Positions 11,388 through 43,547 of a stretch of 44,820 nt of DNA are shown here, one piece after another. The stretch lies in sequence record PP627283.1; one strand, written 5' to 3'. Below the pieces are notes generated by a model that was not told where the DNA came from, made no database searches, and saw only the letters and a program-made list of their open reading frames with translations. A program made the position numbers and the translations under genes. The first letter of the stretch is position 1. The number at the start of each line of letters is the position of its first letter. The stretch is from Escherichia phage SM_S22.

Positions 11388-11708
11388 TGAAGCGGGACAG
11401 GCGGGACGTCCCGTTTTGTCCCACCTCTGTAAAACCGCATATCTAATCACTTTTATTGCATAAACTCAAAGCGGGACAGGCGGGACGTCCCGCTTTGTCA
11501 CACCCTGTAAATGTGCATACCTATGCAGATTTCGTGCATAAAACAAACGGGACAAAAAGCGGGACAAACACGAGGCGGGACAAAGCGGGACAGCACCCCG
11601 TCCCCGCCAGTGCTGCCGCGGTTTTCAGCCGATCGGGACAGCGGGACAGCACCCCAGTCTTTCAGACTAGACGGGGGTCAGCGGCCCCCCTCGTCTGAGA
11701 CTGAATAA
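11388..11708 (+). repeat. CGGGACA-repeat element, copy 1
   Basis: Two ~75-bp units each holding palindrome GCGGGACGTCCCGC, then a 112-bp unit (11548-11659) with six CGGGACA copies and a 49-bp hairpin tail (11660-11708) that are identical to 39478-39749. Confidence 0.85.
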
Positions 11709-35817: not shown

Positions 35818-35865
35818 TGTCTCGTCCTCTAAAAAGAGGCCCGCAGATTAGCGGGCCGGAATATA

Positions 35866-36309
35866 TTAATCTTCCAGTTCGAAATAGGTTTCGACGATTT
35901 CTTTTAAATCTTTGTGGAAGTCTTCGACGTCGTCATCTTCCAGCTTGGCGATTGATTTGATCTCGAACGCTTCCAGCAGGTCGTCGAATTCGTCGTTGGC
36001 GTCGTCGTCATCACCACCGGCGATAATCGCGGCATACTGTTTGATTTCGTCGCGCATCTCTGCCAGCGGATCGGCATCTTTCTTACCTTTGCCTTTCGCC
36101 GTGGCTTTTTTGCCTTTCGCCGGTGCTTTTTTGGTTTTCGCCGGTGCTTCGTCTTCAGCGTCGTCATCTTCTACGACTTCTTTTTTCGCCTTAGATGGCT
36201 TTTTATCTTCCTGCTTACCAACGGCAGCGCCAACGGTTTCATAATGCTTAGCGATGGTTTCCAGTGCTACTACGCCGCGAGTAATCAGGTTTACGATTTG
36301 TTCAAACAT
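35866..36309 (-). CDS. highly charged early protein (Lys-rich block between acidic blocks)
   Basis: 147 aa; RBS GGAGAT; first gene of minus-strand early operon. Confidence 0.5.
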   Translation of the reverse strand: MFEQIVNLITRGVVALETIAKHYETVGAAVGKQEDKKPSKAKKEVVEDDDAEDEAPAKTKKAPAKGKKATAKGKGKKDADPLAEMRDEIKQYAAIIAGGDDDDANDEFDDLLEAFEIKSIAKLEDDDVEDFHKDLKEIVETYFELED

Positions 36310-36509
36310 GTTTTATATCTCCGATTGGTTAAGTTTAGGTGTCGACCATTAACTTCGTCGGTGGCCTTAACATATTGCCAGGTTACGCGTTCTCCCGTTC
36401 GGGTAGTGGACCTGGTTATATAATCACGGTTGGGAATCCTGACACTTCGATCCGGCCCCTGCGTTGCCCCTCTCCAGTTTGCGTCCTGCATCCTGTCGAC
36501 GAGGTGAAT

Positions 36510-36545
36510 ATTAGATTGGTTGCATGAGGGAGTCAACAACTAATT
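36510..36545 (-). promoter_or_regulatory. early sigma70-like promoter
   Basis: Minus-strand read TTGACT-17-TAATAT with TGCAACCAAT in the spacer. Confidence 0.5.
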
Positions 36546-36547
36546 TC

Positions 36548-36640
36548 AAAAAAAAAGCGCCGAAGCAAAATGCGACGGCGCTAACCAATAAGAGACAATG
36601 AGACGGGAGTATTATTACACGCGTGCGCGCCCGTTTCAAT
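36548..36640 (-). ncRNA. promoter-proximal terminated transcript (candidate sRNA or attenuator leader, ~55 nt)
   Basis: Minus-strand TTGAAA(rc of 36634-36639)-16-TAATAA(rc of 36612-36617), then hairpin 36556-36582 with nine-T run. Confidence 0.3.
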
Positions 36641-36711
36641 ATCCAAAGGATTTGACACCTTGTGGTTTTAGGTGTAGTTTCGTTGGTCATTAACCAACTG
36701 AGGGCAGAGCA

Positions 36712-37041
36712 ATGAATGTAAACGACGCAATCGAAATGTTAACGACGACTGTTAGCAGTGAAACAAGCCGGTCATGGGCTTATACCGATGCCGTTGGGGC
36801 GGTGCTATTTGAGGTCGAGCGCCTGCGCAGTGTAGAAAAAGAATTACGCGCCAGGCTGGAATTGCTCAACGGTACGGCGGCGAGCAAGCTACAAAAACAC
36901 AATGAAGAAATGGAAGAATACAAAAAGCAGGTTATCCGTTTGCGCGCCGAGGGCAAATCCTGGGCGATGATTGCCGAGTTGACCGGAATTAATCAGAGCA
37001 CAGTGCGCTCTTGGGTACGCAATAACAAAACTTCTAAGTAA
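36712..37041 (+). CDS. HTH DNA-binding protein (putative regulator)
   Basis: 109 aa; C-terminal HTH-like SWAMIAELTGINQSTVRSWV. Confidence 0.5.
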   Translation: MNVNDAIEMLTTTVSSETSRSWAYTDAVGAVLFEVERLRSVEKELRARLELLNGTAASKLQKHNEEMEEYKKQVIRLRAEGKSWAMIAELTGINQSTVRSWVRNNKTSK

Positions 37042-37051
37042 GGCCACGGCA

Positions 37052-39316
37052 ATGAGCTTAATTAAATTCGCTGTAACAAGACCCGCTAAAAAAGGCGAAA
37101 AAGCCAGGGCGGAAAACTTCCAGATGACGACCGATGAGTTTTTCGAATTTATCAAAGATGCGAAAGAAATCTCCTCGGTGCATATCAACAAGACGGAAGA
37201 TAAAGCCGAGTATGCGCGCCGCAAGCGTAAGGCCGACGGCATCGTGGCGTATACCAGTGACGGATTGCGTCGTAAGACCAGTGCGGTGGACCGCTCGATC
37301 CTGTTCTTTGATATCGACCGCACCGACACTCGCACCTTGCGCCGCTGCCGTAAGGCTTTCATCGATGCGGGTCTGGAACACGTATTCCACACCACAACCG
37401 GCGACCGCCACCCGCTGAAAGGAGGCACGCGTTGCGCTCGTTTCCTGGTGCTCACCGATAAGCCTGTACCTGCTGAAGACCTGGGCCGCGTCCAGTATGC
37501 ACTATTACACCAACTGGGTCTGTCAGATGTGGACTTCGACGATTGCACGAAAGACACAAACCGCCTGATGTACCTGCCACACCAGCAGTCTGTTATTAAG
37601 TGCCACTACGGAAAACGTGCCCGAGTCCGTCGTCTGCTTCGCCTGGCGGATAAGTTGGGCGTGGAGAAGGAGGAAGTACGCCGCGAACTAACCCAGGGCG
37701 ATGACGCAGTGGCAGACGGCATTCTGGACTGGTGCTTCCAGGCAGGATTCGAGGAGTTATCTTCCGGTCGCGGTTATGAAGTGCCGTGCCCGAACGAACA
37801 TCTGCACAGCGGCGAAGGGTCGACGGCTATCATGGTCAAGGATGGCGAGATCCGTTTCAAGTGTATGCACACCGGCAACGAGTGTTGCTCGGAACTGAAT
37901 AGACACCAGCACCTGGCGCTGCGTCTTATCGGGATCCCTGACCACCTGAACGTCGAGCCACACAACATGTCCCGTAAGCAAATCGCCGCCATCCTTCCGG
38001 GGCTGGACGACGAGGAAGTCGAATCCTTATATGAACATATTGTTGATGCGGTTGGCGACGGCGAAGAATACGGCGTGTGCACCGATGCGGATCTGGATAA
38101 CGAGCCGGTTGCGCTGTTCAGCAAGCACGACCCGATCATCGAGGGGTTGATTAACTTCAAATCGACCTGGTACATGGCGGGTGAGTCGAATATTGGTAAG
38201 TCTTTCTACGTGCTGGGTCAAATGGGCGCTGTTGCCGCCGGTATTCCGTTCGGCGGTGCGAAGGTCGTCCAGTCTCATTGCTTCTATTTCGATGCGGAAG
38301 GTGGTGAAGCCTCCAACCAGCGTAAAGAAGCATTGCAGATTAAATACGAGCACGACCTGGACAAGCTGCACATTATCGATCTGCAGTCACGCGGCTGGGA
38401 TATCACCAGCAAATCCGGCTTGCGCGAAGTTATCAGCTTTATCAACCGCACCGCTAACGGCGAACCGGTTGGCCTGGTGGCGTTCGACTCACTCAACCAG
38501 ACTGTTGCGCTGCGGTCCGCCGATGCTAAACCGTTCGACGAGAACAACGCCAGCGATATGGGTGAAGTGGTCAAAGCGCTGAAAGCCATTGCGGAAAATA
38601 CAGGTGGCAGTGCGGGCGTCATCCACCACCCGGCGAAGGGTGCCAACGGCAGCAGAACCCCACGCGGATCCGGCGCGCTGCATGGTGCTGTCGATTCTGC
38701 GTTCTTCCTGGAGCAACCAGACGACAACCAGCCCGGACAATTGAACCTGTATCATGAGAAGGCACGTAACGGCATCAAGCAAGCGCCGCGCGGATTCGTC
38801 CTGCTCAAGTGCAAGGTGAAGGTGGATCTCCGCAAGTCAGAAGCGTTCGAGGCGCACCAGTCCACCAGCACCGGGCCAGACTTCGGTGACGTGGTTGCCG
38901 GTTGGGACGTCAAGCCGATTGCATCCACGCCTCGCGACGAGACTCTGTACCTCGTACCGGTCGCCCTGGCACCGTTCGCCATCGAACAGGCGAAGGCAGC
39001 GGGCAAGGCCGCAGTTAAGGAGGAGAACGCCGCAGGCCCGCGCAATGAAAAAGAGAAAGTGCTTTATGCAGCGCTGGAAAAACTGATGGAAGATAACCCG
39101 GACCATACCGGATTCAGCAAATCGGCAATTGTCCGCCAGGCTGGACTTGCGAAAGGTGGCACGTCGACAAAGGCAATCGACGATATGGTCGAGCGCGGCG
39201 TACTAGGTTTTTACACAGATCCACACACCGGGGCCATCTATGGGTCGTCGAATATCGTCATTAAAACGAATATACCCATCACGCTTTCGGCGACCGATGA
39301 GGATTTAAAAGATTAA
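37052..39316 (+). CDS. bifunctional primase-helicase (AEP/PrimPol-like N-terminus, P-loop helicase C-terminus)
   Basis: 754 aa; AEP-like LFFDIDRTD; Cys/His zinc module; Walker A GESNIGKS and Walker-B-like LVAFDSLNQ. Confidence 0.6.
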   Translation: MSLIKFAVTRPAKKGEKARAENFQMTTDEFFEFIKDAKEISSVHINKTEDKAEYARRKRKADGIVAYTSDGLRRKTSAVDRSILFFDIDRTDTRTLRRCRKAFIDAGLEHVFHTTTGDRHPLKGGTRCARFLVLTDKPVPAEDLGRVQYALLHQLGLSDVDFDDCTKDTNRLMYLPHQQSVIKCHYGKRARVRRLLRLADKLGVEKEEVRRELTQGDDAVADGILDWCFQAGFEELSSGRGYEVPCPNEHLHSGEGSTAIMVKDGEIRFKCMHTGNECCSELNRHQHLALRLIGIPDHLNVEPHNMSRKQIAAILPGLDDEEVESLYEHIVDAVGDGEEYGVCTDADLDNEPVALFSKHDPIIEGLINFKSTWYMAGESNIGKSFYVLGQMGAVAAGIPFGGAKVVQSHCFYFDAEGGEASNQRKEALQIKYEHDLDKLHIIDLQSRGWDITSKSGLREVISFINRTANGEPVGLVAFDSLNQTVALRSADAKPFDENNASDMGEVVKALKAIAENTGGSAGVIHHPAKGANGSRTPRGSGALHGAVDSAFFLEQPDDNQPGQLNLYHEKARNGIKQAPRGFVLLKCKVKVDLRKSEAFEAHQSTSTGPDFGDVVAGWDVKPIASTPRDETLYLVPVALAPFAIEQAKAAGKAAVKEENAAGPRNEKEKVLYAALEKLMEDNPDHTGFSKSAIVRQAGLAKGGTSTKAIDDMVERGVLGFYTDPHTGAIYGSSNIVIKTNIPITLSATDEDLKD

Positions 39317-39326
39317 ATTTTGCGCG

Positions 39327-39427
39327 CATTGGTTGCCGATATGGGAATTCACATATCGCTAAACGATTAATTTGTGCGCGTATTGGTTGCCATTCTACGT
39401 GTTTTTATCTGGTCGCATTGGTTGCCG
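39327..39427 (+). repeat. three direct copies of 13-bp GCGCATTGGTTGCC-like box
   Basis: Copies near 39329, 39376, 39412; variant of the ATTGGTTGCA motif. Confidence 0.7.
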
Positions 39428-39477
39428 TGTAGTGTAAATATAATGAATAGTTATGCAATAAAACTGCATAAAGTAAG

Positions 39478-39749
39478 CGGGACAAAAAGCGGGACAAACA
39501 CGAGGCGGGACAAAGCGGGACAGCACCCCGTCCCCGCCAGTGCTGCCGCGGTTTTCAGCCGATCGGGACAGCGGGACAGCACCCCAGTCGGGACAAAAAG
39601 CGGGACAAACACGAGGCGGGACAAAGCGGGACAGCACCCCGTCCCCGCCAGTGCTGCCGCGGTTTTCAGCCGATCGGGACAGCGGGACAGCACCCCAGTC
39701 TTTCAGACTAGACGGGGGTCAGCGGCCCCCCTCGTCTGAGACTGAATAA
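39478..39749 (+). repeat. CGGGACA-repeat element, copy 2 (tandemly duplicated 111-bp unit plus hairpin tail)
   Basis: Units 39478-39589 and 39589-39700, each with six CGGGACA copies and inverted GTCCC; tail 39701-39749 identical to 11660-11708. Confidence 0.85.
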
Positions 39750-39917
39750 AATCCGGGGATTGCAAAATACACGGCAGCATGACGCGAAGTGCGGTCATCG
39801 ATGAACTAGGCAACCAATGCGAGTTGCATTATGCGGAGTGAAAAACGCAGTTTGCAGTTGCAGCAGATAGCGATCAACTTTTTCATGCGCGTGATTAATA
39901 TTGGTTGCATCCGCCCT

Positions 39918-39946
39918 GGCACCCTGCTATATTGGTTGCACACCAA
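39918..39946 (+). promoter_or_regulatory. sigma70-like promoter with conserved leader
   Basis: TTGCAT-17-TATATT then GGTTGCACACCAACA-GGAGGG-ATG; the same leader occurs (rc) before gene 5005-5769. Confidence 0.45.
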
Positions 39947-39960
39947 CAGGAGGGCGGAAC

Positions 39961-43444: not shown

Positions 43445-43472
43445 TATTGGCGGGCTTTTTATTGTTTGACCT
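43445..43472 (+). terminator. intrinsic terminator
   Basis: AGCCCGCC-GTATT-GGCGGGCT followed by T-run. Confidence 0.55.
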
Positions 43473-43547
43473 GCAACCAATTAATAGCCCATACTGCGGT
43501 CGCCGTGGTATATTGACCGCGGACAATCTGAATCAGGAAGATATACA

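Follow-up and report, generated by a model that had tools for sequence, protein, structure and literature searches.

In Escherichia phage SM_S22 (sequence record PP627283.1, 44,820 nucleotides (nt); this whole stretch is called the window), a gap of 402 bp at positions 36310-36711 separates two divergent gene blocks. Our comparison with related and unrelated phages suggests that this gap, rather probably, holds three host-type promoters (P1, P2, and PR) together with two non-coding RNA elements. One is element E, a structured leader at the beginning of the P2 transcript. The other is a unit formed by P1 and an intrinsic terminator, which would produce a small RNA (sRNA). E is best described as a new structured-RNA family: its kind, a folded 5' leader, is familiar, and the element itself matches nothing described. 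It evidently moves horizontally as a promoter-plus-leader cassette among virulent enterobacterial siphophages.

A search with 1.1 kb around the gap returned 175 phage records at 80-99% identity, nearly all of them from Dhillonvirus (HK578, JL1, SO-1, EP23, and several BASEL phages), and we assign the window to this genus as an HK578-like virulent coliphage. The plus-strand structural genes span 1-23549, a leftward block extends from 36309 to 23579, and a rightward block begins at 36712. The gap lies between the end of the minus-strand gene at 36309 and the start of the plus-strand gene at 36712, and its identity in relatives is 92-96%, also in cases where that of the flanking protein falls to 77%. 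The initial annotation had described this region as a divergent control region, in which a minus-strand promoter (TTGAAA-16-TAATAA) is followed by a strong hairpin with nine T and by a second promoter (TTGACT-17-TAATAT) ahead of the first leftward gene. All of these features are present. The two blocks diverge from 36309 and 36712, the first promoter is the same site as P1 of our promoter scan, read one base over, the hairpin and its T run are located at 36582-36548, and the second promoter, P2, is located at 36536-36508. The rightward promoter PR and a repeated site, GCAACCAAT, inside P2 had been overlooked. The coordinates of all features are collected in Table 1.

Element E: fold, occurrence and possible action

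The first 160 nt of the P2 transcript would fold into E, in which an outer helix closes a two-junction fold. The predicted parts are a hairpin with an (A)GGA loop, a purine-rich internal loop, a bulged hairpin, and a long arm with a GNRA-type loop. For the analysis of this structure, we built a covariance model from 34 distinct sequences, and the model scores 37 copies of E at 145-182 bits. The copies are 155-164 nt long, with about eight helices and two junctions. In the alignment, which is itself fitted to the covariance model, paired cells reach 89.8%, against 76.8% in shuffled controls and 27-44% in slid controls. Both sides change in 21 of the 39 pairs, where 12.5 ± 1.4 are expected and none of 500 shuffles reaches 21. 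The covariation score is 0.337, compared with 0.128 for shuffled and at most 0.087 for slid controls. The helices of E are maintained by compensatory substitutions beyond the controls, as in a structured non-coding RNA. G-U pairs are confined to the sense strand, and this identifies the transcript as the strand that folds.

The variation is spread over the individual helices. Helix P1 occurs as 17 distinct strand pairs, all of them complementary, and cognate strands pair at a mean of -13.3 kcal/mol versus -8.5 kcal/mol for non-cognate strands. The purine-pyrimidine pair of P3 is A-U (18 sequences) or G-C (16), and the P1b pair is found as GC (15), AU (13), GU (4), and UA (1). P5 takes nine distinct Watson-Crick variants, with one pair appearing as A-U, C-G, and U-A within Dhillonvirus alone, and P6 has four 3-bp cores (GCC/GGC, CCC/GGG, CCG/CGG, CUC/GAG). 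Hairpin P4 has the family form GGGG-CUUGA, loop UCGWAGUG, and UCAGG-AU-UCCC, with compensatory changes in the copies L022, L028, and L073.

The unpaired parts hardly change between genera, with a degree of conservation like that of aptamers or ribozymes. The 6x6 purine-rich internal loop has the invariant strands N-GGAGA and GACGAA (the loop strands are also given as CCGACGAAG/GGAGAGG), and the junctions J3/4 and J4/5 read RACGCW and AACCGUGA, respectively. The kink-turn consensus comprises a C-stem, a 3-nt bulge, tandem sheared G.A/A.G pairs, and an NC-stem. The strands CC-GAC-GA-AG and GGA-GA-GG are invariant and fit it, with an irregular NC side, and the internal loop may be kink-turn-like. 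Four invariant GGA motifs locate in the first 75 nt of E, one of them in the loop of hairpin P2 as CAGGAUG or CAAGGAU.

Other pairings were considered and rejected. An inner helix GAUC/GGAU of P4, proposed by RNAalifold on a MAFFT alignment, is broken by a G-to-A change in L073, and the pairing CUUGA/UCAGG explains the changes in L022, L028, and L073. A GGCC/GGCU pairing was replaced by GGRGC/GCY-A-CC, which covaries. A pseudoknot that would join AGUG of the P4 loop to CACU fails on a G-to-A change without compensation, seen in L025 and L061. When all columns were compared with one another for further covariation, the division into two sequence types drowned any other signal.

Several caveats apply to the proposed fold. 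The independent lineages of E are few, and shared ancestry inflates the counts given above. P5a reaches no more than 62% pairing in a common register, and its registers differ between the two sequence types. Meanwhile, the minimum free energy of the whole leader is no better than that of shuffles (z = +0.81).

A search with the E segment hits phages that share no other DNA with the window phage, and the core of E is ~90% identical between such phages. Beyond Dhillonvirus, the carriers are Tempevirinae (Motto, PHB17, slyngel, JK16, KMI8, tunus, and others), Murrayvirus Lumpael, Sortsnevirus sortkaff, and the Serratia phages MQ-4 and Alux-21. E is found in 171 of 50,697 phage records, with one copy per genome, and two independent queries recover the same set. 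Two further viral scans and the covariance model gave no additional members, and none of the 5,426 complete E. coli genomes and 72,556 plasmids scanned contains E. The only match in a 'bacterial' assembly (L186; QFQS01000013.1, 42,764 nt) is a complete Sortsnevirus-like phage that was binned into a 'Cereibacter sphaeroides' metagenome-assembled genome. In gapped-pattern scans of genomes and metagenomes, L186, L200, L268, L297, and L301 are real among the matches listed, and most others are chance. The covariance model also matches positions 6160-6293 of L327, an unrelated viral contig of 15.8 kb with 64% G+C, at 23 bits (rough E-value 2e-4). This match shares the blocks GAGG-GCA, CCCAA, and CCGACGA, and it is probably due to chance. 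We notice that the host labels of the GenBank phages Campylobacter A144, Acinetobacter NJ01, and Pseudomonas Motto are doubtful, since all three are near-identical to groups of coliphages. When E alone from two genomes was compared with Rfam 15, there were no matches at an E-value of 10 or below, and the literature searched by taxon, topic, and literal sequence gave neither its sequence nor a description of it, with a paper on put as the single relevant item.

The context of E is shared by all copies. Each copy locates in a gap of 200-260 nt between co-directional genes, in the sense orientation and behind its own sigma-70 promoter, of which the -10 hexamer ends ~8 nt before E, so that E begins at +2 to +5. 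Several of these promoters are extended -10 or near-consensus promoters, for example TTGACA-N17-TATAGT, and some genomes have a terminator just upstream. The first open reading frame (ORF) follows 17-55 nt after E. These ORFs are mutually unrelated and belong to different PHROGs, all of unknown function. The promoters of E in Tempevirinae and Murrayvirus share a block, AGCAC(N4-5)TTG(C/T)TAAA, ~40-60 nt upstream of E. It was seen in L020, L022, L026-L028, L059, L073, and L301, and it stands farther from the -10 hexamer than a normal -35 hexamer, which may point to a regulator site or an unusual promoter class.

On the other hand, E is missing from some of the closest relatives of the window phage. 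L004, L010, and L012 are without ~146 nt of the P2 leader and have a 12-nt filler instead, and L015 and L018 also have short P2 leaders. In relatives without E, the same promoter leads into a small hairpin at the 5' end, for example CGUCG-AAA-CGAC. Because this small hairpin is found at the same place, E looks like a module inserted into a 5' hairpin.

The comparison supports the initial annotation in its view that ORF 36291-36539 is probably non-coding; that annotation had left aside that the segment is a 160-nt conserved RNA shared with unrelated genera. ORF 36291-36539 is not a gene, because its start lies in P2, most of it is deleted in the E-less relatives, and the substitutions follow the RNA helices. 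That a small protein is encoded here (82 aa) or by ORF 36511-36690 (59 aa) is exceedingly improbable. Both ORFs are open in the window, and two records carry coding sequences (CDSs) over the control region, namely a 36-aa CDS over P1 in TheodorHerzl (bas14_0049; L003, 2068-2178) and an extension of the first gene across the whole gap in Ioannina (WFD55466.1; L317, 370-920+). However, neither ORF has a Pfam or PHROG family, the starts of both lie inside promoters, and 1-nt indels together with changes in the length of the T run put the frames out of register between close relatives. Some relatives have lost the E segment, and the Motto copy of E has stops in all six frames. The CDSs in TheodorHerzl and Ioannina are probably mis-annotations. 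A tRNA, tmRNA, or tRNA-like gene was rejected as well, as ARAGORN found 0 genes in the window.

As to its function, our best guess, and the reading we favour, is that E is a cis-acting leader on the expression of its own operon. E would act on the transcript that it heads, either through robust elongation or translation in a put-like or anti-Rho manner, or through protection of the 5' end by way of a host factor. An action on transcription or on Rho, which we find attractive, is a tentative proposal, and an action on stability or translation through a host protein such as CsrA is a somewhat doubtful one. Two observations speak against a cis-acting leader. Dhillonviruses without E retain this operon, together with the terminator-like hairpin that follows its first gene, and neither a terminator nor an anti-Shine-Dalgarno sequence was found after E, which means that an expression platform is lacking. 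Because the E-less relatives keep the operon and the downstream hairpin, E is dispensable and cannot be an essential antiterminator; that candidate is weakened by the retention of the hairpin at 35857-35838.

The same features can be read in another way, in which E is a trans-acting RNA that is trimmed from the early transcript and binds or titrates a host factor, such as CsrA or a component of an anti-phage defence. E would then be an accessory RNA for counter-defence or takeover of the host. We regard this as rather unlikely. E is an optional feature of close relatives; it passes between genera as a self-contained cassette of promoter and RNA, and it is restricted to virulent phages, with no copy in E. 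coli genomes or plasmids. Its unpaired blocks are conserved to an extreme degree between phages with nothing else in common, and the closing helix joins the 5' and 3' ends, which would favour a stable trimmed product. The four invariant GGA motifs, including the hairpin loop CAGGAUG, recall the CsrA/CsrB consensus of several GGA motifs with one or more in a hairpin loop (A(N)GGA). In contrast, there is no terminator or conserved processing signal at the 3' end of E, the conserved 3' half is without GGA motifs, and E always runs into a ribosome-binding site within 17-55 nt, as a leader would.

In an unlikely third reading, E belongs to a new class of 5'-leader RNA, either a riboswitch that senses a ligand or a ribozyme that cleaves itself. 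The compact multi-junction fold, the near-invariant nucleotides of junctions and loops, the covarying helices, the kink-turn-like loop, and the GNRA-type tetraloop could be taken as the signature of an aptamer or a ribozyme. E stands in the 5'-leader position before an ORF, and small ribozymes are common between co-directional phage genes. However, the downstream genes are unrelated and of unknown function, which leaves no metabolic logic, and no terminator or alternative structure that sequesters the Shine-Dalgarno sequence follows helix P1 of E. Similarity to an Rfam riboswitch or ribozyme is lacking, and with 160 nt E is larger than the known small self-cleaving classes.

The readings of E as a cis-acting leader, a trans-acting RNA, a sensor, or a ribozyme are inseparable by computation. 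We also entertain, as a possibility short of even chances, that E founds a new class of phage RNA, a promoter-coupled mobile leader that needs no phage protein of its own in order to act on a conserved machine or signal of the host. In that case E could target RNA polymerase or Rho in a put-like way, the ribosome, CsrA, part of a defence system, or a small-molecule signal. Virulent enterobacterial siphophages would swap E in order to boost or protect early expression, with a new sRNA gene beside it.

The P1-terminator unit

P1 would fire leftward from ~36604, and its transcript would stop ~55 nt later at the intrinsic terminator; counted from the predicted start, the T run ends after 57 nt. 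The terminator has a G+C stem of 7+3 bp, an interior of 13 nt, and U9 directly after the stem, with no T run on the other strand. Its fold reaches -16.2 kcal/mol (z = -2.75 to -3.2 versus shuffles). A simple terminator scan skipped this hairpin solely because its loop exceeds 8 nt. By prediction, the unit is free-standing, with its own promoter, its own terminator, and no ORF. The gene layout has no leftward genes upstream of P1, and P1 is for this reason the only evident source of transcripts for the one-directional terminator. Meanwhile, the terminator would shield P2 from P1 traffic, and its T tract is placed at -40 to -60 of P2, where an upstream promoter (UP) element would sit.

Superimposing 18 distinct versions of the gap on one another gives a sharp pattern of conservation. 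Both P1 hexamers are invariant, and the six bases before the predicted +1 (36610-36605) are the most variable stretch. The invariance starts at the predicted +1 (36604), and GTCTCATTGTCTCTTATTGGTTAG is unchanged up to the stem. The 5' half, 36604-36579, is invariant or shows one change in all Dhillonvirus lineages. In the lineage of L015, Ioannina, and LM40P1, the stem becomes AUCCCCG/CGGGGAU by two double pair-preserving changes, and the sequence of the 5' half is kept. The distant relative L018 has a different promoter (TTGCGC-17-TATTAT), a new hairpin with the stem AUCCCCAG/CUGGGGAU (in DNA, ATCCCCAG/CTGGGGAT), and T13. Its 5' part retains only the CTCATTGTCT core, and the seed core CUCAUUGUCU is kept even there. 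The length of the T run varies from 7 to 13 among relatives.

The unit is found in 154 Dhillonvirus records and nowhere else among the phage records. It has no homologue in the E. coli genomes and plasmids scanned for E, no ORF, and no protein-family match in PHROG or Pfam, and an Rfam scan of the 2-kb surroundings gave only sub-threshold matches at chance level (E-values 0.7-8). The terminator, the short RNA, and the leader are unannotated in every GenBank record examined, including HK578, and the sRNA unit is thus not previously annotated.

The initial annotation had left two options for this transcript, a ~55-nt sRNA or a leader that requires antitermination. Comparison favours the first, and nothing that we tested supports the second. 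A free-standing sRNA of ~55 nt is the probable reading on comparative grounds, because conservation runs from +1, the single-stranded 5' half is invariant, the stem is compensated, and the architecture is rebuilt in L018. The sRNA appears to be built like the Hfq type: its unstructured 5' half is rich in C and U, and an A/U-rich stretch leads into a G+C hairpin with a long U tail.

In the leader option, P1 would also feed the leftward operon, with a read-through that is regulated in a nut/N-like or factor-dependent way. P1 and P2 are arranged in tandem on the same strand, 103 nt apart, and the read-through RNA would carry both arms of an inverted repeat (36595-36582 and 36331-36318), able to mask the Shine-Dalgarno sequence of the first gene in cis. 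The boxA consensus is CGCUCUUA. By eye, GUCUCUUA in the P1 transcript resembles it and is followed by a hairpin; this match is only 6/8. However, the hairpin is a textbook terminator, in which a G+C stem passes directly into U9-U13 without a boxB-type loop, and P2 is a good promoter right after it, so that read-through is unneeded for expression of the operon. What we see departs from a lambda-type nut site, in which boxA precedes a boxB hairpin with a GNRA-like pentaloop and an N-like protein takes part, as the boxA-like stretch is found by eye only, the hairpin has an interior of 13 nt, and U9 follows. An N-like factor did not turn up, though no search aimed at one was made. We consider a regulated leader improbable.

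A DNA-level explanation of the conservation from P1 to the terminator is likewise unlikely. It would take the region as operators, a UP element, or an insulator and the short RNA as a by-product without function. The motif RTTGGTYR is enriched (31 copies against 11 ± 3.2 expected in the window), with five copies in the gap and one inside the seed (36582-36589), the T tract is at UP-element distance from P2, and a helix-turn-helix (HTH) protein is encoded next door. No phage target was found for the short RNA. On the other hand, the DNA motif spans just 8 of the 26 invariant nucleotides, the invariance begins at the predicted +1 and not around a symmetric site, the compensated changes of the stem preserve the folded strand and not the sequence, and L018 keeps the architecture despite its replaced sequence.

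Returning to the sRNA, its GUCUC and UCUCU stretches would pair with purine-rich ribosome-binding sites, either of host mRNA or at the Shine-Dalgarno sequence of the first leftward gene. The repeat finder aligned UCUCUUAUUGGUUA (36595-36582) with UAACCAAUCGGAGA (36331-36318), the Shine-Dalgarno region of this gene, at 12 Watson-Crick pairs and one G-U pair in 14 positions. The diverged RNA of L018 would pair with the Shine-Dalgarno sequence of the same phage through ACUCCU:AGGAGU, and the cognate duplex reaches -19.4 kcal/mol versus -10.5 to -15.6 kcal/mol for non-cognate ones. An exact or near-exact complement of the seed was not found elsewhere in the window.

Several results weigh against a function of this kind. 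In an energy scan of all sense phage transcripts, the best duplex reaches -24.5 kcal/mol, compared with a mean of -26.6 kcal/mol for shuffled seeds. The duplex of the seed with the Shine-Dalgarno sequence of the first gene is weak, at -15.9 kcal/mol, and ranks 47th among 277 ORF starts. Both arms of the 14-nt complementarity contain the DNA motif ATTGGTTA, and the complementarity may simply reflect two inverted copies of it. Protein binding to the DNA could then explain why part of the seed is conserved. A Dhillonvirus transcriptome was not found in the literature. We regard the Shine-Dalgarno sequence of the first gene as a weak lead to a target rather than a finding.

Promoters, DNA sites and neighbouring genes

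P1 has 10 of 12 consensus matches as well as the extended -10 TG and is the best promoter-like site in 3 kb by our scan, in which P2 has 9 of 12. PR has 9 of 12 by eye, of which the -10 hexamer contributes only 3/6, and it falls below the threshold of the scan for this reason. It is conserved across relatives and is placed back-to-back with P1, with the -35 hexamers 12 bp apart. The HK578 record carries promoter annotations at all three equivalent sites, so the promoters themselves are not new. The scan found 7 promoter-like sites where 3.0 ± 1.7 are expected in 3 kb, and consensus matches alone are not beyond chance. The unit of P1 and the terminator is above chance because the hexamers are invariant, the six nucleotides before +1 are variable, and the stem covaries. 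In the proposed layout, P2 starts a leftward operon of 12.7 kb, and PR would fire rightward into the operon of the HTH regulator and the primase-helicase.

The region also carries candidate sites for a DNA-binding protein. The 9-mer GCAACCAAT occurs 16 times in the window, where 0.47 copies are expected, and one copy (36523-36515) locates in the spacer of P2. It is often found just 5' of -10-like hexamers, for example at 43466-43500 and in P2. A phage regulator or initiator probably binds at GCAACCAAT, and the copy in the spacer suggests that P2 is probably controlled by a phage DNA-binding protein. Over the predicted start of PR, a palindrome of two RTTGGTYR half-sites is invariant among the Dhillonvirus relatives and is a candidate operator. 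A phage DNA-binding protein, perhaps the 109-aa HTH neighbour, probably acts at the GCAACCAAT and RTTGGTYR sites. In the spacer of P1 (36622-36633), overlapping G+C-rich palindromes (GCGCGC, CACGCGTG) are near-invariant in relatives and may form an operator inside P1.

The 109-aa protein of the first rightward gene is probably a transcription regulator. Other records annotate it as a transposase, a resolvase, or a 'DNA recombination nuclease inhibitor gamma', and its domain matches indicate only a small HTH DNA-binding protein. The 147-aa protein of the first leftward gene has alternating acidic and basic low-complexity repeats, its gene has repeat indels of 60-75 nt between relatives, and the record of phage welsh places a repeat_region inside. 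Following this gene, a terminator-like hairpin, GGCCCGC-N6-GCGGGCC with UCUUUUU (35838-35857, minus strand), stands ~15 nt ahead of the next start codon, and no promoter was found between the hairpin and the next leftward gene. The hairpin is kept in all relatives, and its loop is inverted in some of them (TAATCT versus AGATTA), as if the palindrome had flipped.

Farther away, a repeat-rich non-coding stretch (39300-39960) right after the primase-helicase gene looks like a replication origin. GCGGGACA(A/G) iterons are numerous in it, CGCATTGGTTGCC is present as three repeats, and ~110 nt are duplicated in tandem. An exact 45-nt repeat, GCCGCGGTTTTCAGCCGATCGGGACAGCGGGACAGCACCCCAGTC, is found three times (11615-11659, 39545-39589, and 39656-39700), with the first copy in the structural-gene region and none expected by chance.

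Table 1. Positions of the promoters, predicted RNA elements, DNA sites and flanking genes in the window (minus-strand features inside the gap are read from the higher to the lower number)
Feature	Position	Strand	Description
Element E	36500-36341	-	160-nt structured 5' leader, starts at +2 of the P2 transcript; nhmmer 154 bits, covariance model 147 bits, single copy in the window
E helix P1, 5' strand	36500-36495	-	GUCGAC; pairs with 36346-36341
E helix P1, 3' strand	36346-36341	-	GUCGAC; covariation
E hairpin P2	36490-36480	-	loop with (A)GGA; in other phages GCA-GGA-UGC, GCAA-GGA-UUGC, GCUAUA-AGGA-UAUAGC
E P1b 5' strand, purine loop and P3	36478-36466	-	P1b is a 2-bp helix; loop N-GGAGA invariant; P3 strand GGRGC
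E hairpin P4 (window copy)	36459-36432	-	GGGG-CCGGA, loop UCGAAGUG, UCAGG-AU-UCCC; one G.A mismatch
E arm P5a, P5 and P6	36422-36371	-	P6 (36406-36392) under a GNRA-type tetraloop
E 3' partner strand	36365-36352	-	GCY-A-CC (P3), GACGAA loop, G-N (P1b); block ACCGACGAAG near-invariant
P1	36639-36611	-	TTGAAA (36639-36634), 17-nt spacer, AATAAT ending at 36611, preceded by TG (extended -10)
Predicted small RNA	36604-36548	-	~55-57 nt: 5'-GUCUCAUUGUCUCUUAUUGGUUAG, then terminator hairpin, then U9
sRNA 5' half (candidate seed)	36604-36579	-	unpaired in the predicted fold, C/U-rich; two GUCUC repeats and AUUGGUUA
Intrinsic terminator	36582-36548	-	stem AGCGCCG/CGGCGCT (36582-36576 with 36562-36556), inner 3-bp stem, T9 (36556-36548)
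P2	36536-36508	-	TTGACT (36536-36531), 17-nt spacer, TAATAT (36513-36508)
PR	36652-36680	+	TTGACA (36652-57), 17-nt spacer, TAGTTT (36675-80); predicted start ~36687
Palindrome (candidate operator)	36682-36698		GTTGGT-N5-ACCAAC; two RTTGGTYR half-sites over the predicted PR start
GCAACCAAT copies	5793, 5806, 21908, 26445, 26462, 29404, 39810, 40661, 43473	+
GCAACCAAT copies	24782, 36515, 39328, 39382, 39417, 39900, 39931	-
ORF	36539-36291	-	82 aa, TTG start inside P2; mechanical ORF
Linker and start of first leftward gene	36307-36340	-	A/C-rich linker, Shine-Dalgarno GGAGA (36322-36318), ATG (36309)
First leftward gene	35866-36309	-	147 aa, PHROG 3127 (unknown function); ATG at 36309
First rightward gene	36712-37041	+	109 aa; C-terminal HTH (HTH_23, HTH_28, Sigma70_r4_2); next gene is the primase-helicase

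Relation to known regulatory RNAs

T1-like and HK578-like virulent coliphages are workhorses of phage therapy and of research on defence systems (BASEL and similar collections). To our knowledge, their early gene control is essentially unmapped. If real, the conserved sRNA gene in the control region would supply a regulatory RNA of a virulent siphophage, which is a rarity. The covariation of E, its absence from Rfam, and its fusion to a promoter point to an RNA-based function that is exchanged like an accessory gene. Whether it proves to be a put-like element, a sponge for a host factor, a sensor, or a ribozyme, E would be a new tool for phage biology, and it could serve as an insulating or boosting leader in synthetic biology. 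A practical gain concerns the several GenBank records that annotate spurious CDSs over the region of the sRNA and E.

Lambda OOP and P22 Sar are short phage RNAs with a dedicated promoter and an intrinsic terminator, and they act cis-antisense to cII and ant, respectively. Like them, the P1 unit consists of a sigma-70 promoter and a predicted untranslated RNA of ~55-77 nt that is ended in a Rho-independent manner in the early control region. Unlike them, it has nothing encoded opposite the RNA and no sequence similarity to either, and the phage is virulent, not temperate. The P1 RNA also resembles the Hfq-dependent sRNAs of enterobacteria in its conserved unstructured 5' seed, its A/U-rich stretch, its G+C terminator hairpin, and its U tail of at least 7, with the seed kept by sequence and the stem by structure. 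It differs from them in having no homologue in E. coli genomes and no Rfam match, and its binding to Hfq and its pairing are only predicted.

For E, stabilising stem-loops at the 5' end and leaders protected by CsrA, such as the 5' untranslated region of ompA and the flhDC leader, offer one comparison, as E has a helix 2-5 nt from the 5' end and GGA motifs near this end. In contrast to E, a simple hairpin suffices in such 5' stabilisers, which would leave a 160-nt fold with invariant junctions across genera unexplained. E is similar to the SAM-I, lysine, and cobalamin aptamers in size, multi-junction fold, invariant junctions, closing P1 helix, and 5'-leader position, and its CC-GAC-GA / GA-GG loop and GNRA loop recall the riboswitch aptamers with a kink-turn. 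Unlike riboswitch aptamers, E is without an Rfam match, an expression platform, or a function shared by the downstream genes.

The put RNA of HK022 offers a further comparison. It is a protein-independent processive antitermination RNA of ~70 nt with two stem-loops in a V shape (PMC9378689). It is present at both early promoters of the temperate phage HK022 and acts through the zinc-binding domain of the RNA polymerase beta-prime subunit (PMC9378689). E does not share the size and shape of put: it has ~160 nt and about eight helices, it is present in one copy per genome in virulent phages, and it is dispensable in relatives. What E does share is the position, with an early promoter upstream and terminators downstream. 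As with putL, the predicted fold of E follows an early promoter directly, and E heads a long operon with terminator-like hairpins and needs no neighbouring protein gene.

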